Assembly: GCA_001804285.1 (NCBI GenBank)
Contig: MHFR01000048.1
Coordinates: 43,622 to 107,621, forward strand
Direction: 5' to 3'
Length of the DNA: 64,000 bases
DNA from: Candidatus Danuiimicrobium aquiferis
Lineage (GTDB): Bacteria > Omnitrophota > Omnitrophia > Omnitrophales > Danuiimicrobiaceae
The notes beneath the pieces were generated by a model that saw only the letters and a list, made by a program, of their open reading frames with translations, did not search any database and was not told the origin of the DNA. Shown here piece after piece: positions 2,891 through 54,085 of this stretch. Position numbers and translations under genes: made by a program. Within the stretch, counting starts at the first letter, position 1, and each line of letters starts with the position of its first letter.

Positions 2891-4108
2891 TTAGGAAATA
2901 TATTCCCGGATAAGTTTCTGGTGAGGGACCGGAAACGAGAGGAGAACTAAGGTTTTTTGATCGACCCAGCGGGCAGATTGAAGGTTCTTTGCTTTTTCCC
3001 TCACCCTCTCCCTTAGGGAGAGGGTGAGGGGTAAATCCATTCTCCTATATTCCCGCTTTTCCGCCCAACAGGACGGCGGATTCGCCAGTTCTCGCCAAAC
3101 AGCGCAGCGAGTCCGACGCGTATTTTGGTGGATGTTAGGTGGACGCGGGGATGACATATGAACCACAACCGGCTCAATCCATAATGTTCGGTGAGTTAAT
3201 TGATGACGAAGTACTGGCAGTTTCTTTTCGATTTCAACTTGCATTCCGTAAGCCAATTTAAATTCCTGTTGAATCGCGTCTTCGGCTGACTCACCTTTTT
3301 GCCGGATGACACTCGGAAGTTCCCACAATCCGCCCCAAATGCCGTGGTTTGGTCGCTTGCGGACGAGGAGTCGTCCGCCGTTTTGAAGAATCGCCGCCGC
3401 CATTTTTATTTCTTTAATTGCCACATTTCGAGATTTTACCGGGACGTTTAATTCTTTCCCGCATTGATAGGCTTTGCACAATTGACGGACGGGACAAATG
3501 GCGCACCGGGGATTTTCCGGGACACAAATGATAGCGCCTAACTCCATTAACGCCTGGTTGAAATCCCCCGGTTTTTTTTGAGGAACGATTTTTTCGGCAA
3601 TGGTAAACATTATTTTAATGGTGTCAGGTTTTGAAATATCTTTTCGAATATAAAAAATTCTTGAAAAGACACGCGCTACGTTTCCGTCAACCAGGGGCAC
3701 GGGTTTTTGAAATGCGATGCTTGCGATTGCGCCGGCTGTGTACCGGCCGATTCCGGGTAGTTGCCGAAGTAATGCGGGATCGGATGGAATATGGCCGCCA
3801 AATTGATTCACAATCATTTTCGCGGCCTTGTGGAGATTCCGGGCTCGCGAATAATAGCCAAGCCCCTCCCAGAGTTTTAATACACGGTCAACCGGCGCGC
3901 GGGCGAGTACCCGGATATTTGAAAACGCTTTCAGCCAGCGGTCGTAGTAGGGAAGGACCGTTTTGATTTGAGTTTGCTGGAGCATGATTTCAACGACAAA
4001 GATGCGGTACGGGTCGACGTTCGGAATCCGCCACGGCAGCCGGCGCTTATTTTTTCCGAACCAGCGTAAAAGCTTAAATTGAAATGACTTATAATTAAAG
4101 CGTTTCAT
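2891..4108 (-). CDS. mutY: A/G-specific adenine DNA glycosylase MutY
   Basis: HhH-GPD motifs (LPGIGRYTAGAIASIAF, VDGNVARV) and a 4Cys FeS loop (CxxxxxxCxxCxxxxxC: CVPENPRCAICPVRQLC). N-terminus LLRWFGKNKRRLPWR matches the MutY start, so the start is placed at M of MKRFNYKS (4108) rather than the longer track ORF. C-terminal ~55 codons read through a palindromic repeat (2998-3031). Confidence 0.85.
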   Translation of the reverse strand: MKRFNYKSFQFKLLRWFGKNKRRLPWRIPNVDPYRIFVVEIMLQQTQIKTVLPYYDRWLKAFSNIRVLARAPVDRVLKLWEGLGYYSRARNLHKAAKMIVNQFGGHIPSDPALLRQLPGIGRYTAGAIASIAFQKPVPLVDGNVARVFSRIFYIRKDISKPDTIKIMFTIAEKIVPQKKPGDFNQALMELGAIICVPENPRCAICPVRQLCKAYQCGKELNVPVKSRNVAIKEIKMAAAILQNGGRLLVRKRPNHGIWGGLWELPSVIRQKGESAEDAIQQEFKLAYGMQVEIEKKLPVLRHQLTHRTLWIEPVVVHMSSPRPPNIHQNTRRTRCAVWRELANPPSCWAEKREYRRMDLPLTLSLRERVREKAKNLQSARWVDQKTLVLLSFPVPHQKLIREYIS

Positions 4109-6493: not shown

Positions 6494-7192
6494 ATGACCA
6501 TTAAAACCATCTTCTTCGATGCCGGTGGAACACTTTTTAAACCGTATCCGTCTGTCGGCGGGCTTTATGCGAAAATGGCTGCACCTTTCGGAAAAGAATT
6601 TGATCCTGATATCTTGGAAAAAAAGTTTCAAGCTGCCTGGCAAAAACGCGGAGGCCTGGCGTCTCTCGGATCGGAAACAAGCGAGGAAAAAGAACGCCAT
6701 TGGTGGGTGACGCTCGTGGAAGAAGTGTTTGAGCCGTTTGGCGGGATGCCGCATTTCGAGCAGTTTTTTGAAAAGCTCTATCAGGCGTTTGAAGAAAAAG
6801 AGTCGTGGGAAATTTTTCCAGAAGTGCTTGAGACGTTAAAAGAACTTCGTTCGAAAAAGTTGACACTTGGTATTGTTTCAAATTGGGATTTAAGGCTTCA
6901 CAAGGTGCTTAAGAGTTTGGATTTAATACAGTATTTTGATTTTATTGTCGGTTCAAGCTATGTCGGCGCGACCAAACCCCACCGGAAAATATTCGAGGAG
7001 GCGCTTTCAAAATCCGCAAGCAAACCGCATGAAGTGATTCATGTCGGAGACAGTTATCCGGAAGATATTATGGGCGCCGAGCCCCTTGGTATTCGGGCTT
7101 ATCTGATTGAACGGAACGGATCGGCCCTCAAAAATCCGGAAGTCAGAACAATCCGCTCGCTCAAAGAACTTTGTAAGCTGATTGAAGAATAG
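6494..7192 (+). CDS. HAD-superfamily hydrolase (subfamily IA-like)
   Basis: Motif I FFDAGGTL. Motif III/IV region (IVSNWD; HVGDSYPEDIMGA). Confidence 0.75.
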   Translation: MTIKTIFFDAGGTLFKPYPSVGGLYAKMAAPFGKEFDPDILEKKFQAAWQKRGGLASLGSETSEEKERHWWVTLVEEVFEPFGGMPHFEQFFEKLYQAFEEKESWEIFPEVLETLKELRSKKLTLGIVSNWDLRLHKVLKSLDLIQYFDFIVGSSYVGATKPHRKIFEEALSKSASKPHEVIHVGDSYPEDIMGAEPLGIRAYLIERNGSALKNPEVRTIRSLKELCKLIEE

Positions 7193-7405
7193 CGAACCAC
7201 CCAAATAATCATTTAGCCGATTCCCGATTTCCCCCCGAATGTTCCTTTTTTGATATTGTCATCTCCGTGGAAACGGGGATCTATCAGAATCTAAAAACTG
7301 CACGGATAGATTCCCGCCTAAAGCTTGCGGGAATGACACTAAGAAAAGGGGACACTCACGAATGTGGATGCCCTCTTTTTTGTGTGCGCCCGGCAGGGCG
7401 ATATG
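7193..7405. repeat. inserted repeat block: double-hairpin MITE core (7265-7338, minus orientation) plus a degenerate terminator-like hairpin (7346-7383)
   Basis: Contains GATCCCCGTTTCCACGG and GATTCCCGCCTAAAGCTTGCGGGAATGACA. Also AAAAGGGGACA...TGCCCTCTTTTTT. Flanked by diverged direct copies of the HAD 3' end (7130-7192 and 7406-7471). Confidence 0.6.
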
Positions 7406-7496
7406 GTGAAAAATCTTGCTACGAAAAAGATCCGATCGCTCAAAGAATTATGCAAGTTGATTGAGGATTAATGTGATGCTGTTCCGCTCGTGACAA

Positions 7497-8294
7497 TTAC
7501 TCTACAATGCTTTCGCCGCCGTCGATTCGGATCGTGTTTCCAGTCATCCAGCCTGTTTCTTCGCGGGAAAAAAGCGAGATAACTTTTGCAATATCTTCCG
7601 GAACGGTAGACCTTCCGCCCGGGTTTTTCCGAAGGGAGATTTCAAGCATTTTTTCATAACCGGGAATTTTTCGAAGCGCCGGTGTGTCCGTAACGCCGGC
7701 AAGAATGGCATTGGCCGTAATTCCGAGAGGCGCAAGTTCAAGCGCAAGCTGGCGGATATGGGATTCAAGAGCGGCTTTTGCGGCCGATACGGCTCCGTAA
7801 CTTTTCCAAACCCGGCTGCTTCCGGCACTCGTCATCGCGAAAATCCGCCCGCCTTTCGACATTAACTTTTTCGCAACTAATTTTTGCACCCAATAAACAA
7901 GACTATTTGCCATCACGTCGATCGTGGTATCCATTCTTCCTTTTGGCATTTCCTCCGCCGGATTTTCAGAAATGAAAGGTTTTAGAGATCCAAACGCAAG
8001 GGAATGCAATAAGACTTGGATGGTTGAACCGGGTATTGCTTCAAACTTTTTTTCGATGGCGGTTACGATTTCAACCATGTTGGATTCTTCGGCAGCGTTG
8101 CAATTGAAGAAAACCGCTTCGACATTTTGGCTTTGAATTTGGCGGATCACTTCTTCGGCATGCGCAATGGTTGCTTTGAGATCGAGGTGAACGCCAAAGA
8201 TATTCATACCGTCTTTGGCAAGCTGAATGGCTGTGGCTGCGCCAAATCCGCTGGATGCTCCGAGAATCAGTGCCCAACGATTTATTTTTTCCAT
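7497..8294 (-). CDS. short-chain dehydrogenase/reductase (SDR) family oxidoreductase
   Basis: N-terminal Rossmann motif ALILGASSGFGAATA. Catalytic YxxxK (SYGAVSAAK). Lies immediately downstream of etfBA. Confidence 0.7.
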   Translation of the reverse strand: MEKINRWALILGASSGFGAATAIQLAKDGMNIFGVHLDLKATIAHAEEVIRQIQSQNVEAVFFNCNAAEESNMVEIVTAIEKKFEAIPGSTIQVLLHSLAFGSLKPFISENPAEEMPKGRMDTTIDVMANSLVYWVQKLVAKKLMSKGGRIFAMTSAGSSRVWKSYGAVSAAKAALESHIRQLALELAPLGITANAILAGVTDTPALRKIPGYEKMLEISLRKNPGGRSTVPEDIAKVISLFSREETGWMTGNTIRIDGGESIVE

Positions 8295-9403: not shown

Positions 9404-10216
9404 TCAACTTTTAATCCACTCGACAATATCCCGGGCAATCTCATCGACCGGAACGTCTTTCACGATTTTTGTTTGCCGTTGCTGCTGAGGCAGTTTTACG
9501 CTTGCGAAGGTAACGCCTTCGGCGCCAACTTTGGCCGCTTGCGCTTTCTGAAGCGCCGGCATGATGGTCCTCATATTCACCATTCCGATTTGCGGATTAT
9601 TCGGCGGTTCGGGCAGATTTCCCGTCGCCCAGCCGATAGCAATTGGAAGCGCGGAACAAACCGAAACTTGATATTGTCCGGCTTCAACACGTTCGAGAAT
9701 TTTAAACGAGCCGTCATTTTGAACCGTGAATTCGTCTACGGCGAGAAATTGATCGGTAATTCCCAAATGTTCGCCGATCAATTGGATGGTTGCACCGGCA
9801 TCGCGGGATGCGGAAGAACATCCGCCAAAAACCAGCAAGCGGGATTTGTCGAGGCCCGGAATTTTTTCGATTGCCCCGGCAAGGGTTTGTGCTACTTCCG
9901 CGGAGTCGGTAAATCCGCTTGAGGATCCGTCAATCGCGACGAGTTCAAATGCGGCTTTTTGCGCCATGGTCATCATTAATTGTTGAAGTTTTGCTTTCGG
10001 TCCGAGACTGACAAGCCAAACCTTACTGTCCCCACCGGTTTTTTTTGCCAAGTTGGCAGCTTCGTAAAGCGCGTGAGCGGCCCACGGATCGAGGACGGCC
10101 GGAAGCATCATTTCATTTTTGAGGGCCGGGCCCGTCGGGCTTTGAATCGGTTCAAGAGTTTGAAGCGGGTCCGGAACCAGACTTCCGCAGACGACGATAT
10201 GAAATCCTTGTGCCAT
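9404..10216 (-). CDS. etfB: electron transfer flavoprotein beta subunit
   Basis: EtfB-like sequence (GFHIVVCGSLVPDP...; VDEFTVQNDGSFKILER). Start placed at MAQGFHIV (10216). The longer track ORF extends into a MITE (10263-10382). Confidence 0.8.
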   Translation of the reverse strand: MAQGFHIVVCGSLVPDPLQTLEPIQSPTGPALKNEMMLPAVLDPWAAHALYEAANLAKKTGGDSKVWLVSLGPKAKLQQLMMTMAQKAAFELVAIDGSSSGFTDSAEVAQTLAGAIEKIPGLDKSRLLVFGGCSSASRDAGATIQLIGEHLGITDQFLAVDEFTVQNDGSFKILERVEAGQYQVSVCSALPIAIGWATGNLPEPPNNPQIGMVNMRTIMPALQKAQAAKVGAEGVTFASVKLPQQQRQTKIVKDVPVDEIARDIVEWIKS

Positions 10217-10508: not shown

Positions 10509-10656
10509 GTCTGTTTACCGTTTTGAAGTAATTATCTACCTGTTTTTCTGTCATTCCCGCGAAAGCGGGAATCCAGAATCTATGGATGCCCGCTGAAAAC
10601 ATGCGGGCATGACACAAGTGGGCGTATCCGCCACTTCAAAATGCTAAACAAATATT
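10509..10656. mobile_element. composite MITE: TIR framework (TGTTTACCGTTTTGAAGT ... CACTTCAAAATGCTAAACAAATA) carrying a double-hairpin core (10549-10613)
   Basis: Core GTCATTCCCGCGAAAGCGGGAATCC...GGATGCCCGCTGAAAACATGCGGGCATGACA. Same TIR framework as the elements at 18596, 19002, 19803 and 50636. Confidence 0.6.
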
Positions 10657-10733: not shown

Positions 10734-12572
10734 ATGGAATATCGCGTTGTTTTATATGAGTTGAATAAATGGTTAAATGACGAAGATGTCCTGAGAACCA
10801 TCGAAAGCGTCGGCGTTCCCAGCCGTAAAGAAGTTCTTAACCTGATCAAGCGCAATCGAGTGCTTTATATTAAAAGTCTTGAAGAATCAAAAGCCAGGGC
10901 GCTTGCCGATTTTTTTAAAGGCCGAGGAATTGATTGTGATCTTGAGCCGATGGAGCTCGACGATACGGTTCGAAATTGGATTTTAGAAGAAGGGAAGAAA
11001 TGGCTCAAACGGAGCTTTGTTTATCCTCATCATTTAGTGAGTATTTGGCGGAATTATGGATTAGAAGCGGCCGGTTCGGTTCTCCCGCCCGTTAAGGCAA
11101 AAGATCCTAAATCTCTCATTAAAACAATTCTCACCATCGGGGCGGTACTGATTGGGCTTGGCATTATTTTATTCATTGCTTCGAATTGGCAACGTTTTCC
11201 CAACAGCATGAAAATTATAGGCTCGACTGTTTCGACCCTTGCATTTCTTCACGCCGGTTATTATGTGAGAGAGAAATCGTTTGGTCCGAAGCATTTGACG
11301 AATGCGCTTTTTCTTATTTCCATTTTTAGCATTGGCAGCACGATTGCTTTAATTTCACAGATTTACCACGTTGAAGCCGATTCTTATATATTGCCGCTTA
11401 TCTGGGGATTCTTAGCCTTGCCGGTTTTCTTTTTCTTGGATTATTTTCCGGCTATTTATATCGCAAGTGGTTTATGGCTTTTAGCGAATGTTTTATATCA
11501 ATCTCTGATCGGGACGGCGCCCTGGTTTTATCCTTTATTGCTGCTTGGTTTTTTATTGCCTTATAGCGCTCGAAAAAAAGACGAAAACTTTTTTAATGTC
11601 AATTTGGTTTTTTTGATGGTGGCATTATCGATGACGACTATTGTCAAGGATTTCGTTGCAAGCTCAATTTGGGTTTTATCCCTAACGTATCTTCTTAAGC
11701 GGAAGAAAACAGAATTATATGAATATCTGGTAATGGCGGGGTTTTTTATTTGGAATATTAACTTCGTTCAAAATTTCGGACGGTTCCCGAACCTGCTCTA
11801 TCTGGTTATTCTTTTCTATTTTGTGAAGCGTGCCTTGAGTTTGCGGTCAAACGAAATGATGATTGTTTCCATTTTTAATGGGTTGTACTGGCTGTCGAGT
11901 TTTTATTGGCAGGCGGAGCGACGATTTAATCTTACTCCGCCGGATGGTTCGGATATTATTCTATATTTGATGAGCGTCGGAATGATTTTTTATGGAGCCG
12001 GGAAAAGAATACTTTCGAAAAGTGAGTGGAAAACGCTCGCGAATTTTTTATGTTACGGGGGGCTTGTTTTGGTGGCGTTGATGGTCTATGTTATGTCTTT
12101 CCGTTTTTATTCGTCGAGGGACAATTTCTTCCAATCCATTCCGTATCTGTTTAGTACGTTGTGTTTTACGGTTCTTAGTGTTTATTTAGCGCTTCCTTCT
12201 CTCGTGAAGGATTTCCAGACAGATCCCAGGAAAAAAGACGAAATTGGAATTTACGCGTTTACGGCAGGCGGGTTAATTTTGACGGTTCTTGTTCCGCCTT
12301 ACGCGGGCATTCATGTTGTTTTGTTTAATTTAATTCTTTTTTTTATGGCATTTATGTTTATGACAAAGGGACACCGGGAACAACGGATTGCATTTTACAA
12401 TTGGGGAATTGCGCTTTTTATTGTTTTGATTATTTCACGTTATACGGATACGTTGTGGGCGTTTTTATCCCGTTCAATATTTTTTATTTTAGGGGGTGTC
12501 TTTTTAATTTGTTGGGCGATCTTTATTGACCGGGAAAAGAAACGTATGGGAAAGGCGCAATCGGATGATTAA
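10734..12572 (+). CDS. polytopic membrane protein (DUF2157/DUF4401-like) with ~110-aa N-terminal soluble domain
   Basis: About 14 predicted TM helices after a soluble N-terminus. A GDYXXLXY-type gene lies directly downstream, a conserved pairing. Confidence 0.5.
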   Translation: MEYRVVLYELNKWLNDEDVLRTIESVGVPSRKEVLNLIKRNRVLYIKSLEESKARALADFFKGRGIDCDLEPMELDDTVRNWILEEGKKWLKRSFVYPHHLVSIWRNYGLEAAGSVLPPVKAKDPKSLIKTILTIGAVLIGLGIILFIASNWQRFPNSMKIIGSTVSTLAFLHAGYYVREKSFGPKHLTNALFLISIFSIGSTIALISQIYHVEADSYILPLIWGFLALPVFFFLDYFPAIYIASGLWLLANVLYQSLIGTAPWFYPLLLLGFLLPYSARKKDENFFNVNLVFLMVALSMTTIVKDFVASSIWVLSLTYLLKRKKTELYEYLVMAGFFIWNINFVQNFGRFPNLLYLVILFYFVKRALSLRSNEMMIVSIFNGLYWLSSFYWQAERRFNLTPPDGSDIILYLMSVGMIFYGAGKRILSKSEWKTLANFLCYGGLVLVALMVYVMSFRFYSSRDNFFQSIPYLFSTLCFTVLSVYLALPSLVKDFQTDPRKKDEIGIYAFTAGGLILTVLVPPYAGIHVVLFNLILFFMAFMFMTKGHREQRIAFYNWGIALFIVLIISRYTDTLWAFLSRSIFFILGGVFLICWAIFIDREKKRMGKAQSDD

Positions 12573-13089: not shown

Positions 13090-13112
13090 AAAAACTGCCA
13101 GAATTAATAATC

Positions 13113-13138
13113 AATTCTCTGCAGAATGTAATCCGCCG
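13113..13138. repeat. 26-bp direct repeat, copy 1 (AATTCTCTGCAGAATGTAATCCGCCG)
   Basis: Identical to 14260-14285, which is the last 8 codons plus stop of the ETF-QO gene. The two copies bracket the PD40 gene. Confidence 0.8.
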
Positions 13139-13175
13139 AAGCGCCGGCGCTTCGCCAGCCAATTTTTCGAGAGGC

Positions 13176-14222
13176 TTAGGTTTTTCTCGCGGGGATCCAA
13201 ACCGGATATTTATCGCTTTTCGGATGGGTTGTTACTTTGAACACCGACGTTCCGTCGGCTTTCATCACCAAAATATCGTCAAGACTATTTTTCGGATCTG
13301 GCGCCTGGTAAAATGCGGAAAAAACAACAAATTGTCCGTCCGGAGAAAACGAGGGAAGAAATTCCGCCCACTCGGAATGTTTTCCGCTTTGGCTTAAATC
13401 GACGACGGATTTCCCGTCGCGGTCGACTTTCAAAATATGCCAAATCCCGTTGCCCCAATTTTCACCCTTTGAACTCGTTGCCCGTTCAAAAACAATCCAT
13501 TGATCATCAGGGCTCCACTCGGGATCATAATTTCCTGCCGGAAAGACGGGCGTTGAAACGCCGGGACCGCCATCGTAGACGGTCCTGATATTTTTTCCTT
13601 GAGAATCCATGATTTTGATGACGAACCGGGGTGTCTTTTGATCGAGATACGCGAAAACGATTTCCTTCCCCGAATGCGACCATGCGGGATCCCCTTCGAT
13701 TGCGGCCGGTGTGTCCGTCAATGGCGTTAACTGTGTACCGTCCCGTTTGATTTTATAAATGTCGCTTTGTTCTTTGCCCTTTCGCTTCATGAGGAACACG
13801 ATCCACTCGCCGTCGGGGGAAAAGCTGTCACCCTCAGCGTGGTTTTTCGAATCCGTCAAACGTTGTTCAAGTTTGTTTTTTGTGTCAATGATCCACAGAG
13901 ATCGTTTATCCTCATCGCCCAAACCTTTGGGGGCCGTTGTGTCTTCTGCAGCCCTCGAGGCGACGATATATTGAGTCGTTTGATCAACACCAAGGATGAA
14001 ATGATGATATTTCGAATAGGTGATTCTGGTGGCGCCGCTTCCGTCGGTATTGATTGCGTAGATTTCAGACCGCCGGTCTTTGGTGTCGCGATTTGATGTT
14101 ATCAAGATATGCGCATTTTTGGGGATGGGCGTAATTTTAGCTTTTTTCGGTTGTTCGCCGTAAAGTGTTTTACCGGAGAGCAAGAAAAGCATCAAAAATA
14201 TGACAGATAGTTTTTTCATCAT
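13176..14222 (-). CDS. periplasmic PD40/WD40-like beta-propeller repeat protein (TolB-like)
   Basis: Signal peptide MMKKLSVIFLMLFLLSG. Repeated PD40 motifs (SFSPDGEWIVF, EWSPDDQWIVF, SFSPDGQFVVFSA). Confidence 0.6.
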   Translation of the reverse strand: MMKKLSVIFLMLFLLSGKTLYGEQPKKAKITPIPKNAHILITSNRDTKDRRSEIYAINTDGSGATRITYSKYHHFILGVDQTTQYIVASRAAEDTTAPKGLGDEDKRSLWIIDTKNKLEQRLTDSKNHAEGDSFSPDGEWIVFLMKRKGKEQSDIYKIKRDGTQLTPLTDTPAAIEGDPAWSHSGKEIVFAYLDQKTPRFVIKIMDSQGKNIRTVYDGGPGVSTPVFPAGNYDPEWSPDDQWIVFERATSSKGENWGNGIWHILKVDRDGKSVVDLSQSGKHSEWAEFLPSFSPDGQFVVFSAFYQAPDPKNSLDDILVMKADGTSVFKVTTHPKSDKYPVWIPARKT

Positions 14223-14257
14223 GATTCCTTTCTGACTTTATATTGTCAACGCTAATG

Positions 14258-16123
14258 CTAATTCTCTGCAGAATGTAATCCGCCGGAACCGGCACGGAAG
14301 TTGACGTTGGTGCGTTCCGGGTCAGTGTCATGGGGTTTTGCGCAAGTCCACATGCACGCGCCGCAGTGAATACATTTCTCGCGGTCGAATTGAGGCACCT
14401 GACCGTCTTCGCCGGGCGTGATGGCTTGGCCGGAGCAAATCTCAATACAGACTTTTGTTTTGCAGTCTTTGCACAGTTTTGTGTTAAGAAATGTGACATG
14501 GTCCGCAAAACCGCCCGCTGCCTGAACCTTGCCGCCCATGAGGAGTGCATCCTGATGCGAAACAAGCAATTTCCCGTCATATTGGATTTTGGGCCAGCCC
14601 GCTTTTTCCATTAAGGCGCTGTTGAGATATGTACCGGCACGAACGGTTTCCTCACGGGTTTTCGAGATTTCTTCGGGGCTGATAAGCCCTTTGTAATAGT
14701 CTTCAAGAGACGGAAAATGTTCATACAGGCGTTTTGATTTTCCGGAGAGATTCAATTTCCCACCGGTGAATCCGGAAATCGCCATTCCGATAAATCCTTT
14801 GACGAAGCCGTCATCAAATCCGTCCCGCGATTTTTCAGCCACTTTGGCTTCTTCTTCAATCCAGCTTGAGCGTCGCCGGTTCTCATACGCTTCCTGCAAA
14901 TTTTCTTTTGAGAAGGGTTTACCCGCCTTACAAAGTTCAATCACACCTTCCGCGAGTTGAATGCCCGTCATCCACGCTTCATCAACCCCGGAACCCGTTA
15001 AGACATTCGTGCTTCCGGAACCTTCGCCGATTCGGGCATATCCATCGCCCACGAGGAATGGTTCGCCGCGTTTTCCGGATTCCTGAAGCGATTTCGCGCC
15101 CCACGATTTCATGGTGCCGCCTTTTACATAACGCCAAATGTAGGGATGCATGAGCCAATATTGTAAATACCGGTAACTTGTCCGCGTGGGAGTGTTCATC
15201 CACGATGGAATAAACACGCCGACGGAAGCGAGGCGGTTCGGATACACATAGAAGAACCCGAAAATTTCCGGTTCTGGATATCCGAAAGTGTGAAATACGG
15301 TTCCCGGTTTGAGCGGGCAATCCTCGGGTAGTTCAATCACCATTTTCATTCCGACGGCCCATTCGCGCTGGTGATGATCTTTCGGCAATCCAAAATGTTG
15401 ATCGAGTTGTTGGCCGACGGCGCCGACGGGCCCGTCTCCCACGACCGTCAGATCGGCACGGATATCCATGCCGGGCATATAGCCTGCGTCCGGATTTCCG
15501 GCCTTGTCCGTTCCCTGATCCACTAACCGGATTCCGGAAACTTTTCCCCCGTCAAAAAATGCCGATTTAGCGGGCATTCCCGGCCAAACTTGAACGGCCC
15601 CGGAGGCCATGAGCTGCGAACCAACCCACGTATTGAATTGGCCGATTGAGAATACAAAACCGCCGTGTTTATTCATGAACGGAGGAATAAAGGGAACTTC
15701 AAATCCGTGTTTTTTGTAAAAAGGATTGATGCATTTTGTGGCGTTGATCAAGAAATCTGCGATCTTCAGGAGAGGAGACCTTCGGCTTTTTCCAATCGGG
15801 TCGAGCAAATAAATAAGTTTTTCGGAGGTCACGGGTGCGGCCATCGGAATTTGAGAAAGTTCTTCTGTGGTAAACGACTCACGGATTCCGCGTGCTTTCG
15901 TGACAACACCGGACGCGCCGAAACCGATATCGTCGGCGCGTTCATAGCAAATGACTTGTAACGGCATTCCCGGCATGGCTTTGCTTTGAAGGATGGGTTG
16001 AAGCGCCGGGTCCTGGAGTGCTTTTGAAAGGGTGGTGAGGAATCCGCCGGTTGCTGGGCCGAATCCGACACAGACGATATCGACGTTCATGCTTTGCCGT
16101 TCAATAGATGGCTCTGACTTCAT
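14258..16123 (-). CDS. electron-transfer-flavoprotein:quinone oxidoreductase (FixC-FixX-like fusion)
   Basis: FAD GxGxxG (VDIVCVGFGPATGG). C-terminal 4Fe-4S ferredoxin motif CIHCGACMWTC. Start may be the internal MNVDIV (16090). Confidence 0.85.
   Translation of the reverse strand: MKSEPSIERQSMNVDIVCVGFGPATGGFLTTLSKALQDPALQPILQSKAMPGMPLQVICYERADDIGFGASGVVTKARGIRESFTTEELSQIPMAAPVTSEKLIYLLDPIGKSRRSPLLKIADFLINATKCINPFYKKHGFEVPFIPPFMNKHGGFVFSIGQFNTWVGSQLMASGAVQVWPGMPAKSAFFDGGKVSGIRLVDQGTDKAGNPDAGYMPGMDIRADLTVVGDGPVGAVGQQLDQHFGLPKDHHQREWAVGMKMVIELPEDCPLKPGTVFHTFGYPEPEIFGFFYVYPNRLASVGVFIPSWMNTPTRTSYRYLQYWLMHPYIWRYVKGGTMKSWGAKSLQESGKRGEPFLVGDGYARIGEGSGSTNVLTGSGVDEAWMTGIQLAEGVIELCKAGKPFSKENLQEAYENRRRSSWIEEEAKVAEKSRDGFDDGFVKGFIGMAISGFTGGKLNLSGKSKRLYEHFPSLEDYYKGLISPEEISKTREETVRAGTYLNSALMEKAGWPKIQYDGKLLVSHQDALLMGGKVQAAGGFADHVTFLNTKLCKDCKTKVCIEICSGQAITPGEDGQVPQFDREKCIHCGACMWTCAKPHDTDPERTNVNFRAGSGGLHSAEN
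14260..14285. repeat. 26-bp direct repeat, copy 2 (3' end of ETF-QO gene)
   Basis: Identical to 13113-13138. Confidence 0.8.
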
Positions 16124-18401: not shown

Positions 18402-18595
18402 GAAAATAGCCCCTTTTTAATAGGATTAACAGTTTAAAAATTACGCTTTTAATGATGGTATCTATATGAAAACCAGGCCTTTATGGCCCGCATATATTAA
18501 TGATGAATGCTTTGCGATGCAAGCGAAAAGCCACACCGGGCATATGTTTTTCCGTGACGGGCGGATAAGCTAAGATTATAATAACAAAAATTTTT

Positions 18596-18702
18596 GTATC
18601 TGTTTAGCGTTCTGAAGTTGACTTTCCTCCCTCACCCCTGCCCTCTCCCTCGGGGAGAGGGCAGGGGTGAGGGGGATTTGTTAATCTCTTCAAAATTTTA
18701 GA
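18596..18702. mobile_element. MITE: TIR framework (GTATCTGTTTAGCGTTCTGAAGTTGAC ... CTCTTCAAAATTTTAG) with palindromic core CCCTCACCCCTGCCCTCTCCC-TCGG-GGAGAGGGCAGGGGTGAGGGGG
   Basis: Near-perfect 25-bp palindrome arms. Related copies at 2998, 19803, 27246, 29117 and 50636. Confidence 0.7.
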
Positions 18703-18739
18703 TGTATTTCCTATTTTTAAATTGAAGGAAAATGAATAG

Positions 18740-19001: not shown

Positions 19002-19156
19002 GTCTATTTAGCGTTTTGAAGTGGTGAACACGCCAGTTCGTGTCATGCCCGCATGCTTTAAGCGGGCATCCATAGTTGCTGGATTCCCGCTTTCGCGGGA
19101 ATGACAAAAAAGCGGACGACCTTTTATAGATAATCACTTCAAAGCGCTAAACAAAT
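19002..19156. mobile_element. composite MITE: TIRs TCTATTTAGCGTTTTGAAGTG ... CACTTCAAAGCGCTAAACAAATA with double-hairpin core (19042-19106)
   Basis: Core GTCATGCCCGCATGCTTTAAGCGGGCATCC...GGATTCCCGCTTTCGCGGGAATGACA. Confidence 0.7.
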
Positions 19157-19785: not shown

Positions 19786-19802
19786 TGGAAAACATGAACC
19801 AG

Positions 19803-19917
19803 CTATTTAGCGTTCTGAAGTTAGCTATTGTCCCTCACCCTAACCCTCTCCCTAAGGGAGAGGGAAAATTCAAAGCGGGGGGTGAGGGGGATTAGTTAAC
19901 CGCTTCAAAACGCTACA
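19803..19917. mobile_element. MITE, TIR framework with palindromic core (interrupted)
   Basis: TATTTAGCGTTCTGAAGTTAGC...CCCTCACCCTAACCCTCTCCCTAAGGGAGAGGG...GGGGTGAGGGGGATTAGTTAACCGCTTCAAAACGCTA. Confidence 0.7.
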
Positions 19918-19945
19918 TGAACTGTTCCCAACTCTATAAAAAAAT

Positions 19946-27202: not shown

Positions 27203-27245
27203 AGATTTTAGCACTTTGTTCAACAAATTCGTACCGACTTCCATT

Positions 27246-27320
27246 CCCCTCACCCTAACCCTCTCCCGCGGGGAGCGGGCAGGAGTGAGGGGGATCTGTT
27301 GATCACTTCAAAATCAGAAA
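27246..27320. repeat. half MITE (palindromic core + right TIR CACTTCAAAATCAG)
   Basis: CCCTCACCCTAACCCTCTCCCGCGGGGAGCGGGCAGGAGTGAGGGGGATCTGTTGATCACTTCAAAA. Confidence 0.6.
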
Positions 27321-27433
27321 TGATTACATTCATATTTCGACTGATAAAACAGAAACTTAACTTTTTAACCGCTTAGATCTCGCAAACTATTTAATTGCAA
27401 CAAGTTAGAGTAATTAAAAAGTTTAACTTAGCC

Positions 27434-27653: not shown

Positions 27654-30600
27654 ATGCATTTTGGGATTAAACAAAAAAACAAATCATTTAATCTAAGCGT
27701 AAAACGAGCCACTCTCTCTATTTTTTCATCCCGTTTTCTTCGTTCAATTGCCCTTGTTGTGTTGATTTGTTTTGTGACGACGAATATCACATGGGCAGAT
27801 GTGAGCGTTGGCGCATCGATCACCACCCTTCAAAATGAAATCCAATCGCTTGCCCTCAAGCCCTTTGCGATTCCCCGGGAAGCCGGACGGATCGAAGAAT
27901 TGTTTCTTCCTGACGGAATGTCCCCGGAAACACCGCTGATCGTCTATTTGCAGGATGCTCATACCAACTTGGGCGCGCAAGAGAATATCCAAAAAATTGT
28001 GCAGGAATTAGCGCCGAAACTCAAAATTGACACGGTCCTTGTCGAAGGCGGTACGGGCGAAATCGATTTGTCGGAATTGAAATCCTATCCGGATGAAAAA
28101 ATTAAAACCAACGTTACGCAGTTCTGGATGAAAGAAGCGGTTCTGAACGGAATCGAGCGCGCTGCGATATTAAGCAAAGCCAATTTCCGCCTCATTGGAA
28201 TTGAAGACAAGAATCTTTATGAAGAAGCCGGAAAGCACTTTGTAACGGCCAAGCAGGAATCGCAGGCATTTCTTGCCGAACTTGAGCCACGCTTGAAATT
28301 GATCAACGAAAAACGGAAAGCAAAATTCAATCAAGATTTGATGGTGTTCGATGATTTGACAAATATGTTCGAAAAGAAGCAGGAGCTCATGCCTCTTGTG
28401 AGCGTGATTGCCAATGAAGCCAGGAACCGCCATCTTGACCGCTGGAAATACGCGCAAGTTGAGAAGTTTATCAGTTTGATGCTGTTTGAAATTCGCGGTG
28501 GCAATCAGCAGCAACTTCTCAGAGCGAAAAAAGATTTAGACGCAAAACAATTTTTCAAAGAGCTTGAAGCTTTAAAACAAGAAGTCAAAGAATCGCTGTT
28601 TCAGAATGACGAAGAACGCGCGATTGACGCAGAGGCGCAGGGACTAAAGTTATTGCGCGATTTGGTGTCGCTCGAAGCCACGCCGGAGCAATATCAAAAT
28701 TTTCTGAAGGACCGCGAAAAGATTGAAAGATTGATTGAAAATAATTTTGGAATTCTGTCATCCCCGCATGCAGTAGGCGGGGATCCATGGATTCCCGCTT
28801 CCGCGGGAATGACAAAACCTCAAACGAATTCATCACTCGCCCTTGAATCCGCCATCGAATTTTACGAATCCGCAATTAAACGCGACGACATCTTATTTCA
28901 AAACCTGCAGGCGGCTCTATCAAAGCAATCTTCCAAACACATTTTTCTCGTCACCGGCGGATTTCATACGCCCGGCATTGTTGAAAAGTTGAAAAGCGCG
29001 AAGCTTTCGTACGTGCTCATTTCGCCGCAAGTGAGCGAAGAAGACAACGCCAGGCAATATTTAGAACGTGTCGCTGGCAAGCGCGCCGATTTGGAGGAAT
29101 TTAAATCAAAATACGGCCCTCACCCTAACCCTCTCCCTGAGGGAGAGGGCAGTCCAAATTTCTACAGGCAGTCCTCGCAGCGAAGCGGAGAGGGGAAGTT
29201 TAAGGGGACGGGTGAGGGGGAAACGTATGCCGTGCCCTCGGTCAGCCGGGCTGAAGTTGGAATCATCCGCGAATCCTTTGATTGGGCGGCAGAGCGATCT
29301 GGGGAGATCGACAATAGTCACTGGTCACCAGTCAATAGTGCCCCTTTTTCTACGAATGTCATCCCCGCAAAAGCGGGGATCCAGCGGGATTCCCGCCTCC
29401 GCGGGAATGACACAATATTCCGCTCCGAAGCGCGAAGTACGCAGAATCATGATCAGTACGATACCCCGGCCTATAGTCTTAATTCCGGTTTTGATTCAGA
29501 TGATACTGATGAAATTCAACGAATTTTGAGCGAGTTTCGCCGCATTTCCGGCATTTCTCGGAAAACGGTCCAACAATTTGCGAAGGAAGCTATTCAATCT
29601 GCAGGCAGCAAAGAGTTGCGGAGACTTCGCTTTGAATCAACGCCTCGCGAAAGATCAATATATTACTGGACTCTTTTGATTCTTGGCTGCATCACCGTCG
29701 GTTTAGGTGCCGCTTCAGCAGGTTGGGCGTGGTCCGCGGCCATCTTGCGGGATATGGGACAGAAGGATCATGTTTCATTTTGGACATCCGTTATTCCCAT
29801 GGCGATTGGGCTTGGGATTTTCATTGTCGGAGTCATTGTTTTAATTGCGCTTAACAGACCGTACCCGCTTAATGAAAAAAGTGTCTATGAACTCGCGTTG
29901 CGGTTTAAGTATCTTGATGGCGAAACATTTCGAAAACCATCCGATTCGGCAAACCTTCTCGCCCGTTCCGAAGTGCGTGGCGAAAGTGAAGCAAAAAAAC
30001 CGATTATTGATGTTCGCCGCCTTGAAGATCAGCACCATCGGCGATTTCAGGAACTCGTCGGGCTGTATCAAAAAATAAAACCCCAATCTGTAGCGGCTGA
30101 GATCAGGCTGTTTATTTTTGGCGCGATTTCTTTCATCAGTATGATAGTCGGTTTTTTTATGATGAGTAGTATCGAAAACCCCCGAGACCTTGTCACAATG
30201 ATAATGCCGTCTATCGCCATATCTCTTACGGCGCTTATGCCCACCATTTATTTTATGTGGAAAGCTAAAAAATTGGGGACACTTTTAAATAACATTCTGG
30301 GCAATTTCAGCGGCATGGAACTGACGAAAGAGGAACGCTCACAAAAACCGAAAAAATTAGAGCAGTTTTCTTTGAGATGGGGCGAGCGGTTTGATTTCGA
30401 GAGAAAACGGGGCAAACAATATCAGACGCCCAAATTGATTGAAGGCGGGCGGATGTTTGAAGAGGAAGGAGAATTTTTTTCATTGGATCAGAGGACGATC
30501 AATGATTTGGGTGTCGAATCGCTTTTGGAAAAACAGGATAGGACAAAGACAGGATTCGGACAGTCGCGGCTCGAATGGCTCATTAAACATCCGCTTCTAA

Positions 30601-50614: not shown

Positions 50615-50635
50615 GAGTTGAATGACAAATCAAAT

Positions 50636-50726
50636 GTATCTGTTTAGCGTTTTGAGGTTGACTATCGCCCCTCACCCTAACCCTCTCCCTCGGGGAGAGG
50701 GCAGGGGTGAGGGGACGCATTTGTTA
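50636..50726. mobile_element. MITE, TIR framework with palindromic core, between convergent genes
   Basis: GTATCTGTTTAGCGTTTTGAGGTTGAC...CCCCTCACCCTAACCCTCTCCCTCGGGGAGAGGGCAGGGGTGAGGGG... Confidence 0.7.
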
Positions 50727-50746
50727 TTACTTAGTTCGTCATTTCC

Positions 50747-51172: not shown

Positions 51173-51329
51173 TTGTCATATTTTATAGGACGAAAGCAAT
51201 TAAAAATCAAATCGTTCCACTATTTTTCTAAATTTTTAATTCCTTGCCATGTCTGACGAACGCTGTGATATTTGTTTATCGGCTGACGGGTCGGGAAACT
51301 GAATGCGGGGTGGGAGGTAATGCTGCCTT

Positions 51330-51590
51330 GTCATTCCCGCATGCTTCCCTCGGCAAAGCGAAGGCCAACCCTGTATTTCCAGGGTAGGCGGGAATCTGTT
51401 AAGCATGGATCCCCGACACCCAAGAAAAACTGGGGCCGGCCCTTTCTTTTCCAAGGGAAGCTTTCGGGGATCAAATTCGCGCGTTCAACTTTACATTTTG
51501 TCATTCCCGCATGCCTTAGGCGGGAATCGATGTTCATAGATCCCCGACAAAAGCTTTCGGGGATTAAATTCGCACATCGACTTACGTTCC
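51330..51590. repeat. two tandem copies of a ~125-165-bp double-hairpin MITE (51330-51495; 51500-51590)
   Basis: Each copy: GTCATTCCCGCATGC...GGCGGGAATC...GATCCCCGACA...TTTCGGGGAT(C/T)AAATTCGC. Confidence 0.7.
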
Positions 51591-53106: not shown

Positions 53107-53937
53107 ATGCAAGCATTACAAACGGAAGAATTGTGTCGGATAGCCAATGAAATGCGGAAGGATATCATCCGCATGCTTGCCGAGGCCGCATCCGGTCATC
53201 CGGGCGGATCTCTTTCGGTGACTGATATTCTTGCGGCACTTTATTTCAAAACCGCCCGCCACGATCCAAACAACCCCAATTGGCCCGACCGTGACAGAAT
53301 CATTTTAAGCAAAGGGCATGCCGCTCCGGCGCTTTATTCCGCATTGGCCAGGTCAGGATATTTCCCGGTTGATCAATTGATGACGTTAAGGAAATTAAAC
53401 AGCCCGCTTCAAGGACATCCCGACAGGCGAAGGCTTGCGGGGATTGAAATTTCAACAGGTTCTCTTGGACAGGGACTTTCCGTCGGGATTGGCATGGCTC
53501 TTGCGCGCCGGCTTGATCAGAAAAATTATTGGACGTATGTGATTACGAGTGACGGGGAAATGAATGAAGGGCAAACATGGGAAGCCGCGAGTTTTGCCTC
53601 CTTCCATAAAATGGATCATTTGATTGCGATTATGGATTACAACAAATTTCAGTTGGATGGCGCCGTCAAAGAAGTTCTTGATATGGAGCCGATGGTGGAC
53701 AAATGGAAATCTTTCGGCTGGTATACTTTCGAAATTGACGGCCACAACATGGAAGGAATTGTGAAGACGATTGAGTTGGCGAAGACGATTAAAAATGCAC
53801 CGGTGATGATTATCGCACATACGATTAAAGGGAAAGGTGTCTCGTTTATGGAAGGGAACAATCATTTCCATGGTGTTGCGCCGACAAAAGAAGAAGCCGA
53901 GAGGGCGTTAAAAGAGTTGGATAGTCATAAATTTTAG
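53107..53937 (+). CDS. transketolase, N-terminal (TPP-binding) subunit
   Basis: GHPGGSLSVTDILAALYF. GDGEMNEGQTWEA. Split-transketolase organisation. Confidence 0.85.
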   Translation: MQALQTEELCRIANEMRKDIIRMLAEAASGHPGGSLSVTDILAALYFKTARHDPNNPNWPDRDRIILSKGHAAPALYSALARSGYFPVDQLMTLRKLNSPLQGHPDRRRLAGIEISTGSLGQGLSVGIGMALARRLDQKNYWTYVITSDGEMNEGQTWEAASFASFHKMDHLIAIMDYNKFQLDGAVKEVLDMEPMVDKWKSFGWYTFEIDGHNMEGIVKTIELAKTIKNAPVMIIAHTIKGKGVSFMEGNNHFHGVAPTKEEAERALKELDSHKF

Positions 53938-54016
53938 ATCCGCCACAAAGCGTGGCGGATTCAATTCGGCCGCACAACTTGCGAATGGTAAATCTGCCGC
54001 AAGTTGTGGCCTCATT
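53938..54016. repeat. ~80-bp insertion with two hairpins (CCGCCACAAAGCGTGGCGG; GGCCGCACAACTTGCG...CGCAAGTTGTGGCC), flanked by diverged copies of the transketolase-N 3' end
   Basis: Copy 1 at 53890-53937 (EEAERALKELDSHKF*). Copy 2 at 54017-54064 (EEALRALRELEEKKF*). Confidence 0.6.
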
Positions 54017-54085
54017 GAAGAAGCCTTAAGGGCGTTAAGAGAGTTGGAAGAAAAAAAGTTTTAAACGAACGCGGAGAACGAATTC

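Follow-up and report, generated by a model that had tools for sequence, protein, structure and literature searches.

A hydrolase gene tail and its second copy beyond a hairpin-rich insert in Candidatus Danuiimicrobium aquiferis

Phages, islands, ICEs and their integrase-less CIME derivatives insert in the 3′ end of tRNA, tmRNA or protein genes and provide a surrogate 3′ end. Rhs/CDI polymorphic toxin loci undergo C-terminal displacement, and 'orphan' tips remain downstream. In homology-facilitated illegitimate recombination (HFIR), one homologous anchor and a second join, non-homologous or with short homology, fix the foreign DNA; illegitimate recombination in its simple one-sided form results in deletion of recipient DNA, not in its duplication. 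REP/REPIN, BIME, Correia and ERIC elements produce no target duplication or one of a few nucleotides, and diversity-generating retroelements combine a variable repeat at the gene 3′ end with a template repeat downstream. We know of no description of a 20–90-nt duplication limited to a gene tail, and a literature search found none of the tail-stop-hairpin-tail-stop layout considered here.

This layout is seen at the end of a HAD gene in a 64,000-nt stretch of contig MHFR01000048.1 from an uncultured groundwater bacterium of the Omnitrophota; the whole stretch was analysed and is referred to as the window. The HAD protein is 100% identical to OGW79743.1 (Omnitrophica bacterium RIFCSPLOWO2_12_FULL_44_17 / Ca. 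Danuiimicrobium aquiferis). The last 13 to 20 codons of the gene are found a second time beyond a hairpin-rich insert, before the end of a convergent SDR gene, and the HAD/SDR pair is conserved in relatives. The genes neighbouring each other at the locus are TPR, HAD, SDR and ETF. Its features are as follows:

6494..7192, + strand: HAD-IA family hydrolase gene, 232 aa, stop TAG at 7190-7192 (Pfam PF00702/PF13419/PF13242)
7130..7150, + strand: copy A, upstream, diverged part (KNPEVRT); its first 7 nt (AAAAATC) are identical to, and in register with, 7409-7415
7151..7192, + strand: copy A core, the proximal, translated tail IRSLKELCKLIEE plus TAG; 34 of its 42 nt match 7430-7471 with no shift in register
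7193..7256, no strand: A/T-rich spacer right after TAG, unique (single copy in the window)
7257..7338, no strand: REP doublet (REPIN-like) of the family TGTCATYCCCGC...GCGGGRATC, with inverted hairpin units 7257-7285 and 7305-7338
7342..7381, no strand: two-way terminator-like hairpin by folding (A-run, imperfect GC-rich stem, T-run)
7382..7404, no strand: small GC hairpin by folding, overlapping the possible decayed stretch 7379-7408
7409..7429, + strand: copy B, upstream, diverged part (KNLATKK), preceded by ATG GTG at 7403-7408
7430..7471, + strand: copy B core, the distal, untranslated and stranded tail copy IRSLKELCKLIED plus TAA (7469-7471)
7472..7496, no strand: 25-nt spacer from the copy B stop to the convergent SDR stop
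7497..8294, − strand: SDR, a short-chain dehydrogenase / enoyl-ACP-reductase-like gene convergent to HAD (Pfam PF13561/PF00106)

A preliminary description of the locus put the insertion right at the stop codon and a second copy of the final coding stretch beyond it, and this anatomy is confirmed. The repeat was given as about 66 bp at 81% identity; its place stands, and that identity belongs to the 42-nt core only, with 70% (46/66) over 7127-7192 vs 7406-7471 and 45/63 matches between 7130-7192 and 7409-7471. The copies align without a single indel, at a constant offset of 279 nt, and both end with a stop codon. Local alignment gives z scores of 13-17 against shuffles, and A and B are the sole pair of 42-mers in the 64-kb window with at least 34 matches at any offset of 50-600 nt. 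After AAAAATC, the other 14 nt of 7130..7150 match B at chance level. The tail of copy A fits the family motif I-x-S-L-x-E-L, and the 90% protein cluster of this HAD contains A-type tails exclusively. The locus is identical, save one SNP, in nine independently assembled contigs of the species, so the duplication is not an assembly artefact; none of the nine is an excised variant.

As the preliminary description noted, the differences are mostly synonymous. The 13 codons differ at seven nucleotides (C/A, C/T, T/A, T/C, C/T, A/G, A/T), six of them synonymous, which amounts to one conservative amino acid change, and random substitution would give so few amino acid changes with a P of about 5e-4. 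Such differences are those expected between two functional alleles. Gene conversion is rejected as the sole cause of the likeness of B to A, as 10-19% of sites differ, never at codon positions 1/2. Tandem duplication across both gene tails is rejected as well, the sequence 3′ of A being unlike that 3′ of B.

Copy B lies in a reading frame of just 35 open codons. HAD similarity extends over at most 30, with none farther upstream, so B is not part of the longer HAD pseudogene ORF that the preliminary description had raised as a counter-explanation. A related proposal is that B is what is left of a second HAD gene, deleted save its last 13-30 codons and unconnected with the insert; that gene would have been a tandem paralog, or the former resident left behind by a whole-gene replacement. 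This is very unlikely. B does retain an open frame and its own stop, and weak protein-like similarity reaches codon -30 (Y/F, L/V, R/R, N/Q, G/G): 7379-7408 (FVCARQGDMV vs YLIERNGSAL) has an in-register BLOSUM score of 13 vs a null of -10.6 +/- 6.8 (P = 0.002) with nucleotide matches at 12/30, and is possibly a decayed upstream part of the stranded HAD end. However, relatives have only one HAD at this place and similarity is absent past 30 codons. Moreover, amino acid identity between A and B is 12/13 in the terminal helix and 4/17 in the preceding loop, a contrast unseen in real ortholog pairs; helix and loop may have separate histories. The remnant proposal is further disfavoured by four other genes with the same layout, in which the repeat ends at the stop and a hairpin precedes the distal copy.

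Two roles for B at the protein level, as a small independent gene and as a target of read-through or frameshifting, were rejected. B is too short for a small independent gene: its frame of 22-35 codons has no visible ribosome-binding site and lies between the terminator-like hairpin and the end of the convergent gene. Elsewhere, in the SDR and transketolase cases described below, the distal copy has no start codon at all. Read-through or frameshifting into B is contradicted by in-frame stops after A and by offsets of 62, 65, 67, 127, 279 and 1147 nt, which vary in phase; in the SDR case, a TAA within the hairpin loop ends the frame in which the distal copy lies. Bypass of the T4 gene 60 type likewise combines a stop, a hairpin and repeated codons, but bypass here would yield the same protein, the distance from A to B is 279 nt, and frame offsets vary between cases (62, 65 and 67 nt in three SDR loci). 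Diversity-generating retroelements share with this locus a nearby untranslated second copy of the 3′ coding end that is coding-like. Such an element was nevertheless rejected, since the mismatches here are not adenine-specific; there is also no reverse transcriptase nearby, the neighbours are TPR, HAD, SDR and ETF, and the repeat has 42 nt, not 100-150 nt.

The insert is composite, consisting of the unique spacer, one REP doublet and the terminator-like hairpin. The 'repeat insertion' of 213 bp in the preliminary description is correct in that 213 nt lie between the copies, but only the REP doublet at 7257-7338, one third of the insert, recurs in the window. The double-hairpin element and the terminator-like hairpin named in the same description are both present; two thirds of the insert are unique, and the idea of a duplication made by a MITE does not hold. 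Only 7257-7338 has the character of a REP family, a dispersed short GC-rich palindrome in inverted doublets. REP-related units lie at seven other sites of the window (10549-10615, 19040-19109, 28756-28817, 29357-29415, 32095-32193, 51329-51569), and a 30-nt pattern gives three matches vs none expected. For a 66-nt stretch that takes in both remaining hairpins, the folding energy is -27.4 kcal/mol with z -4.2 on the + strand, and -23.2 kcal/mol with z -3.6 on the - strand; a simple terminator consensus scanner did not call the 7342-7381 hairpin. The insert has no ORF of at least 30 codons besides frames through hairpins. Rfam yields no match in the window at the gathering score, none at E up to 1 within 7050-7550, and a chance-level match only in the transketolase region.

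A transposable element (the REP doublet or another MITE) that made a long target-site duplication, with the distal copy then decaying neutrally, would account for direct repeats adjoining an insert that holds a repeated palindromic element, and long variable duplications occur in some IS families, as in the IS1634 group. This origin is nevertheless highly improbable here. Of 13 other repeat copies tested in the window (seven REP sites and six copies of two further families), none has long flanking repeats: flank-to-flank z is below 2 for 12 of them, and at 2989 the flanks match over 10 nt (z 4.5), vs a z of 17 for the HAD insert. The ends of the insert (CGAACCACCC... and ...CGAAAAAG, or ...GATATGGTG) show no inverted repeats; the inverted repeat is internal, at 7257-7338. 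Neutral decay is at odds with seven differences that change one amino acid, and B is nearer than A to the outgroup tail, where a neutral relic should be farther. Inserts of the parallel cases share no ends, one of them is a whole gene (PD40, at ETF-QO), and the ETF-QO stops differ although the repeat is otherwise perfect. Heterogeneous inserts, the lack of shared termini and the other REP copies without long flanking repeats speak against a transposon footprint, and with it against the MITE insertion that the preliminary description implied as the cause of the long duplication. REP/REPIN, BIME, Correia and ERIC elements resemble the insert in being dispersed families with hairpins right after stops and possible roles as terminators or RNA stabilisers; unlike in those, the REP doublet makes up only a third of the insert, and the copies elsewhere in the window lack flanking repeats.

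The tail-stop-hairpin-tail-stop layout also occurs in the window at transketolase-N and ETF-QO genes; four related species have it at the SDR tail, and a further case involves an IscA-like gene. The ETF-QO/PD40 case had been proposed in the preliminary description as the same motif, and this is borne out; transketolase-N is a third case:

53890..54064, + strand: transketolase-N case, beginning with the tail EEAERALKELDSHKF plus TAG at 53890-53937
53938-54016, + strand: transketolase-N double hairpin, 79 nt, -42 kcal/mol, z -6.7
54017-54064, + strand: transketolase-N stranded copy EEALRALRELEEKKF plus TAA, 21 nt upstream of the transketolase-C start
13111..14285, - strand: ETF-QO case, with a 26-nt tail at 14285-14260 and stop TAG at 14260-14258
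14222-13176, - strand: whole PD40 gene, which with a GC palindrome forms the ETF-QO insert; no other gene
13138-13113, - strand: ETF-QO distal copy, the identical 26 nt, with TGA at 13113-13111, 21 nt from the stop of a convergent GDYXXLXY gene

In all five cases (5/5) the similarity of the two copies stops inside the stop codon. The inserts range from 39 nt to 1.1 kb and are heterogeneous, without shared termini, and those of HAD, transketolase and ETF-QO (237, 79 and 1119 nt) are mutually unrelated. The three cases lie in about 81 kb of one genome, and cases are rare elsewhere, which suggests a dedicated mechanism and counts against the import reading favoured below. Off-target CRISPR spacer integration (repeat, spacer, repeat) was rejected: the size of the SDR unit (62-67 nt) fits, but the 79-, 237- and 1119-nt inserts and the conserved hairpin do not. 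P0146, a 95% PD40 variant, lies on a chimeric contig and is uninformative.

Relatives indicate which of the two copies is ancestral. In three uninserted relatives (L018, L097, L099), the HAD and SDR stops are 0, 5 or 9 nt apart, and in the window the copy adjoining the SDR stop is B (25 nt), not A. The ortholog of L014, where TPR and HAD are ordered as in the window, has a tail with 7/8 codons common to B and 3/8 to A, with gene-wide codon sharing of 64/130 (49%); this argument concerns eight codons only and has a P of about 0.03. The ETF-QO ortholog of L020 ends in TGA, as the distal copy does. SDR genes end in TAA in 4/4 distal copies and 6/6 uninterrupted alleles, and the proximal stops are TAG, TAA, TAA and TGA. 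The last five residues of the transketolase distal copy, EEKKF, are closer to 63 homologs, and those of A are closer to three. The proximal transketolase tail, LDSHKF, is found elsewhere in P0249 alone, whose body has the lowest similarity among the close homologs (73%, vs 79% for P0244). The nearest relative of P0249, P0245 (80%), ends in EERKF, which suggests that the gene tail moved between lineages; the argument draws on one homolog, P0249, compared at the protein level. Ancestral features persist in the distal copy and the translated one is derived, a pattern that fits poorly with duplication followed by decay. Stop codons, codon sharing and the LDSHKF tail, all tiny samples, point towards an element-derived proximal copy and a native distal one.

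The reading that we tentatively favour is that B is the resident HAD end, and that A, its TAG and the hairpin flank were acquired from another lineage through recombination. The original HAD 3′ end would be copy B (7430-7471, with a possible start at 7379), in its ancestral place and no longer translated. Between it and the gene body, a block would have arrived that carried a second HAD 3′ end (A, with the new TAG stop) and its own 3′ flank, comprising the spacer, the REP doublet (possibly a later arrival) and the two-way terminator-like hairpin. The source of the block would most probably be a related but different lineage. In fixation, the conserved 3′ coding sequence may have served as the anchor for recombination, with an illegitimate or short-homology join on the far side, so that the gene end would be replaced in function without deletion. 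The similarity of A and B would stop right at the stop codon because coding sequence is conserved across lineages and the flank is not. Survivors would show this layout because genes abut within 0-25 nt and only insertions that spare both genes persist. The anatomy, the ancestral character of B and the recurrence of the layout are directly shown, while the foreign origin of A and the route of recombination are inferred. The foreign origin of A is argued indirectly, since databases hold no donor or empty-site allele of the species and the next HAD is only 62% identical. The contrast in A-B identity between the terminal helix and the loop before it, unlike that of true ortholog pairs, also counts against this reading.

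The route assumed in this reading resembles HFIR and transformation-triggered duplication, in which donor fragments pairing at two places can yield donor-defined junction duplications. In natural transformation, tandem duplication via alternative pairing of partly repeated donor DNA has been demonstrated (PMC3784515). Unlike the present case, published HFIR and transformation cases have recipient DNA deleted or 100-900 kb duplicated. The identical ETF-QO copies (26/26 nt, with stops TAG vs TGA) are hard to obtain by one-sided recombination, and a backward join, a circle or an inter-chromatid event would have to be assumed. Rhs/CDI loci provide a further likeness: a new 3′ end is acquired via recombination in conserved coding sequence, and the old end stays downstream, untranslated and with its own stop. 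They differ in that a new toxin tip and an immunity gene come in, diversification being the point, whereas the incoming tail here encodes a near-identical peptide and the cargo consists of hairpins or a terminator.

The main rival, a serious but doubtful contender, is a duplicative insertion within the genome, with B then retained for a separate function. The tail would have been copied as the hairpin DNA entered, through template switching, a staggered break or a short tandem duplication. A would keep the coding role, and B a nucleotide-level role that the ancestral tail had for the neighbour: in convergent pairs as part of the neighbour's 3′ UTR, antisense to the tail, and in operons as the ribosome-binding region of the next gene. 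In agreement with this, the distal copy of L039 has GGAG, and its stop overlaps the start of the next gene (ATGA), both features lost in the proximal copy. The HAD, SDR and ETF-QO distal copies all lie between the partner's stop and the hairpin, where they would be part of the partner's 3′ UTR. The identity of the ETF-QO copies is as a fresh duplication would give. B is near-unchanged relative to the L014 ortholog and A has five extra synonymous changes, as if B were frozen and A drifting. The SDR distal copies are invariant at codon positions 1/2 in four species, but they differ among species at every third position and are therefore not frozen at the nucleotide level. Such three-periodic constraint is unexpected for a UTR. 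At third positions, SDR copies A and B match at 3.75/7 within genomes and 2.75/7 between them, no sign of pairing co-evolution, and in the co-directional transketolase pair A-B pairing is impossible. Duplication within the genome also leaves unexplained the LDSHKF tail common with a non-sister lineage, and why the ending always falls inside the stop codon and not in the 21-25-nt spacer.

In compact bacterial genomes, neighbours abut or overlap, and new terminators, hairpins and genes must enter without damage. The HAD locus and its four parallels represent one natural solution, with the boundary segment present twice, one copy for the gene and the other with the neighbour, and the layout points to an undescribed route by which DNA is inserted between tightly packed genes that stay unbroken. 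If the proximal tails are imported, gene 3′ ends would be exchanged between lineages as small units, and the resulting mosaic genes would escape ordinary annotation and phylogeny. Functional distal copies, on the other hand, would constitute a new 3′-UTR or leader element with coding-sequence periodicity and no translation. Under either reading, insertions in uncultured lineages could be dated and traced by searching for stranded tails, which make a simple signature.

The resemblance to 3′-end integrative elements is close in several respects. There, too, direct repeats that are the 3′ end of a gene flank the insert and reach the gene end, the copy joined to the body restores the product, the native end is displaced to the far side, and silent sites and stop codons need not agree between the copies. 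Unlike in those elements, integrases are absent here, the ETF-QO insert holding PD40 as its only gene. The inserts are short and consist mainly of noncoding hairpins, and several unrelated genes within about 80 kb each have a different one. If the gene tail served as the attachment site of a tiny integrative cassette, the cassette would consist of a surrogate tail, stop, spacer and hairpin. It would be excised by recombination of A with B and re-integrate at a resident tail of the same or another lineage, and a hairpin-recognising recombinase, of the host or acting in trans, would take both copies repeatedly through the translated state. This proposal is distinctly unlikely. It would explain why the repeats reach the end of the target gene and the proximal copy has a different stop, which is a hallmark of 3′-end integrators, and also why distal copies evolve in a coding-like manner. 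Against this, a recombinase gene is absent in and beside every insert, the SDR unit has just 62-67 nt, each target gene would require a separate specificity, the HAD, transketolase and ETF-QO inserts are unrelated, and none of the nine HAD-locus contigs is excised.

Further points in favour of such a cassette come from SDR, where interrupted and uninterrupted alleles are interspersed among species. The hairpin stem shows a compensatory change (CTGAC/GTCAG to CTGAT/ATCAG), which indicates selection on structure. The left edge of copy B is GGC in 4/4 species (a D-to-G change), and its remainder follows the host. This common edge and the hairpin argue for a single origin of the SDR insertion, against the import reading. 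With a single origin, repeated transfer or exchange with uninterrupted alleles would be needed for B to be coding-like in four species, in which 7/7 variable sites of the distal copies are at third codon positions. Away from the SDR site, the CCTGAC hairpin was not found in the 1.4 Mb searched (7-20 kb per relevant genome), which speaks against the cassette.

A broader version, speculative and rather unlikely, is that Omnitrophota have gene-end cassettes, composed of surrogate last 7-20 codons, a stop and a hairpin or terminator. These would move between lineages and insert in conserved 3′ coding sequence, leaving the resident tail stranded, and excision, transfer or exchange would keep the untranslated copies coding-like. 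If they exist, terminators or whole genes could be placed between abutting genes without truncation.

The SDR proximal tail and spacer group L010 with L098 and L012 with L022, contrary to the species grouping; this and the interspersion of interrupted and uninterrupted alleles are in favour of the import reading. In a breakpoint search upstream of the proximal tail, windows of 24-200 nt were noisy, and the last 24 nt alone group by hairpin type. A scan of metagenome DNA for the pattern of SDR proximal tail plus hairpin identified one locus, belonging to the L012 species.

The HAD-IA hydrolase gene converges on a short-chain dehydrogenase (SDR) gene, and its 3' end is present twice, as a translated proximal tail (copy A, stop TAG) and an untranslated distal tail (copy B, stop TAA) beyond an insert of four parts.

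Genes of the HAD locus and parts of the insert
6494-7192, + strand: HAD-IA hydrolase gene, converging on the SDR gene
7497-8294, - strand: SDR gene, convergent with the HAD gene
First part: unique spacer, 64 nt
7257-7338: REP doublet (two inverted palindromic hairpin units), of a family with at least 7 other sites in the window
7342-7381: hairpin, A-run before and T-run after, stable on both strands (z -4.2, -3.6)
Last part: small GC hairpin

The copies are offset by 279 nt in exact register, without indels, and each finishes with a stop codon. The preliminary description gave 81% identity over about 66 bp; the duplication is indeed real and in register, but that value belongs to the 42-nt core (7151-7192 against 7430-7471, 34/42), identity being 46/66 over the strings first compared and 45/63 counted from the common AAAAATC. 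Alignment z-scores are 13-17, and no other pair of 42-mers in the window, at offsets of 50-600 nt, reaches 34 matches. The 13 terminal codons differ at 7 nt with one conservative residue change (E to D), and so few residue changes from that many substitutions have P ~5e-4 if substitutions are random. Upstream of the core a weak protein-like likeness continues in register for ten further codons (YLIERNGSAL and FVCARQGDMV; P = 0.002), with none beyond. Contigs of an uncultured Omnitrophota bacterium, sampled from groundwater at Rifle, match the window, and OGW79743.1 (Omnitrophica bacterium RIFCSPLOWO2_12_FULL_44_17; Ca. Danuiimicrobium aquiferis in UniRef) is 100% identical to the HAD protein. 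Nine independently assembled contigs agree, with a single SNP across the same 1-kb stretch, which rules out an assembly artefact; the nine show no population variation in the structure. That copy B is a paralog remnant, part of a longer pseudogene as the preliminary description had considered, is very unlikely: its reading frame stays open for no more than 35 codons, and searching the HAD/SDR intergenic region in translation gives no additional HAD similarity.

The same description implied a MITE as the cause of the duplication; the anatomy and recurrence it proposed hold, the causation does not. Flanks were compared for 13 further repeat copies of the window, seven at REP sites and six from two other families: long flanking direct repeats occur at 0/13, and z is <2 in 12, the copy at 2989 having a 10-nt match only (z 4.5). 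REP mobility thus did not create the HAD duplication, and the doublet may have entered the insert later. The large hairpin (7342-7381) is not called by a simple terminator scanner, and Rfam gives no match at the insert. Transposon target duplication followed by decay is hardly credible, as decay predicts a faster-changing distal copy and changes blind to codon structure, and HAD shows the opposite. With simple duplication and decay failing, either the proximal copy already differed when it arrived, having come from a functional gene of another lineage, or selection acts on the distal copy itself. Gene conversion from A as the sole cause is excluded by differences at 10-19% of sites, and read-through into B by intervening stops and inconsistent frame offsets.

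Comparison of each gene tail with its downstream 1.2-1.5 kb, for ~35 genes of the window, recovers the layout of tail, stop, hairpin, tail and stop in three: HAD, transketolase-N and ETF-QO. Another 17 kb from this genome contains no additional doubled tails.

Other doubled tails of the window
53890-54064: transketolase-N, ...EEAERALKELDSHKF-TAG, 79-nt double hairpin, ...EEALRALRELEEKKF-TAA
13111-14285, - strand: ETF-QO, 26 identical nt flanking an entire PD40 gene plus a GC palindrome

Transketolase-C starts 21 nt past the distal transketolase-N copy, and the distal ETF-QO stop (TGA; proximal TAG) lies 21 nt from that of the convergent gene. All three doubled-tail genes use TAG, against 8/35 window genes overall. 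Homologs of the PD40 beta-propeller, at 50-63% identity, are scattered among Elusimicrobia, Chloroflexi, CPR bacteria and archaea, which suggests by sequence comparison that it is an acquired accessory gene. A metagenome contig (L105, JGI Ga0103681_1037217) is a chimera, matching the window at 100% only over 212-1037 with unrelated genes either side, and the '95% variant' of PD40 that it yields is therefore spurious.

Elsewhere the layout is rare, with 12 matches in 1.28 Mb around HAD homologs from other species and 2 in a shuffled-pair control. Four related species double the SDR tail (loci L010/L016, L012/L096, L022 and L098).

Doubled SDR tails
L010: 3700-3795
L012: 3840-3935
L022: 5655-5760
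L098: 2215-2345

Their order is ...DGGENIVE-stop, 7-9 nt, a hairpin CCTGAC...GTCAGG (loop TTAATTAA) and GGGENIVE-TAA; the hairpin is conserved in all four, its stem in L022 showing a compensatory change. The distal copy lies 3 (L010), 8 (L022) or 32 nt (L098) from the HAD stop, and ~140 nt in L012, with a REP-like repeat in between. Across the distal copies of the four species 7/7 third codon positions vary and 0/14 first and second positions do, a confinement not expected of a distal junk copy. Another Omnitrophota MAG (L039, about 10940-11015) doubles an IscA-like tail, GESFSV, around a hairpin; there GGAG and an ATGA overlap of stop and next-gene start are kept in the distal copy but lost from the proximal one. 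A rival reading, which we consider possible, though rather unlikely, is a duplication within the genome in which B is functional: it would act as leader of the following gene, as at L039, or as the 3' UTR of the partner gene, running antisense to the gene tail. A hairpin ends every insert, 0-8 nt from the distal copy, except at HAD (~25 nt to the 42-nt core).

Relatives without the insert (L018, L097, L099) have HAD and SDR stops 0, 5 or 9 nt apart, and two others (L019, L021) have a plain hairpin or REP doublet between the stops but no duplication. Wherever a tail is doubled, its distal copy holds the ancestral place beside the neighbour gene. SDR stops are TAA in 4/4 distal copies and 6/6 uninterrupted alleles, and TAG, TAA, TAA and TGA in proximal ones; the L020 ETF-QO ortholog ends in TGA, as does the distal ETF-QO copy. 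The L014 ortholog, with the same TPR-HAD gene order as the window, has 7/8 tail codons in common with copy B and 3/8 with copy A (gene-wide 49%; P about 0.03). For transketolase, homologs fit the last five distal residues (EEKKF, the family consensus) in 63 comparisons vs 3. Copy B is therefore probably the ancestral end, and copy A with its flank the newcomer.

Tails also appear to move between lineages. The translated transketolase tail LDSHKF is found in one other homolog only, P0249, whose body has the lowest similarity among the close homologs (73%; P0244 79%) and whose nearest relative, P0245 (80%), has EERKF; transfer of the gene end best explains three consecutive derived residues common to non-sisters. 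Uninterrupted and interrupted SDR alleles are interspersed among species. In very small samples, SDR proximal tail and spacer pair L010 with L098 and L012 with L022, in conflict with how the species group, and the closest distal pair (L010, L022) mirrors species closeness. An integrative mini-cassette, hairpin-guided and alternating between integrated and excised states, is improbable. The layout parallels elements that integrate at the 3' end of a gene and supply a surrogate end, but contains no recombinase and so falls outside those elements. It also resembles C-terminal displacement at Rhs/CDI loci, with differing cargo and purpose. It belongs neither to MITE target duplications nor to diversity-generating retroelements or an Rfam family, and no description of hairpin or terminator inserts between doubled gene tails was found in the literature.

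Our preferred reading, to which we give a little under an even chance, is that B is the resident HAD gene end and that an incoming block of copy A, TAG stop and hairpin flank was fixed by anchored recombination. Homology-facilitated illegitimate recombination is a related known process. Here the anchor would lie in conserved 3' coding sequence, the other side being an illegitimate or short-homology join; with gene gaps of 0-25 nt, selection would let only events sparing both genes survive. The repeat ends inside the stop codon, which import would explain by homology between lineages stopping where coding stops; in each of the three window cases the two purines completing the stop are the start of the insert. 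Import would account for stops differing even with a perfect repeat, for silent A/B differences and for heterogeneous, hairpin-terminated inserts; hairpins may shield single-stranded fragments at their 3' ends. A demonstrated relative of this route comes from transformation, in which partly repeated donor DNA pairs in alternative ways and produces duplications (PMC3784515). Against import, no donor of copy A was found, the statistics behind it are thin, the identical ETF-QO repeats need a backward join, and true orthologs do not show the A/B match profile (12/13, then 4/17). Moreover, a D-to-G change common at the edge of B indicates a single origin of the SDR hairpin, so that import has to assume either repeated transfer or exchange with uninterrupted alleles. 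The structure is small yet recurrent and clade-enriched, and an evolutionary oddity in that untranslated copies change like coding sequence.

Within the ETF-beta gene region (about 9595-9866), two same-species MAGs differ by 88 nt in length (L101 18347-18618, L102 18347-18530; the rest 99.8-100% identical), for which an indel, a repeat or faulty assembly could be responsible. Another family of dispersed repeats, the second of the window and mostly intergenic, has six copies (18595-18704, 19798-19919, 27244-27322, 29114-29221, 50635-50736 and 2989-3040), each TTTAGCGTTCTGAAGTT... and then a nested palindrome CCCTCACCC..CCCTCTCCC..GGGAGAGGG..GGGTGAGGG. An open reading frame of 7292 codons (27654-49532, + strand), with MutS III/V domains and HEAT/TPR repeats, contains REP-like hairpins, CCCTCACCC...GGGAGAGGG repeats and terminator-like hairpins, all kept in frame (28756-28817, 29114-29221, 29357-29415, 32095-32193, 33921-34000 and 44802-44881) and translating to peptides such as VIPAKAGIQRDSRLRGNDT and PHPNPLPEGEGS.
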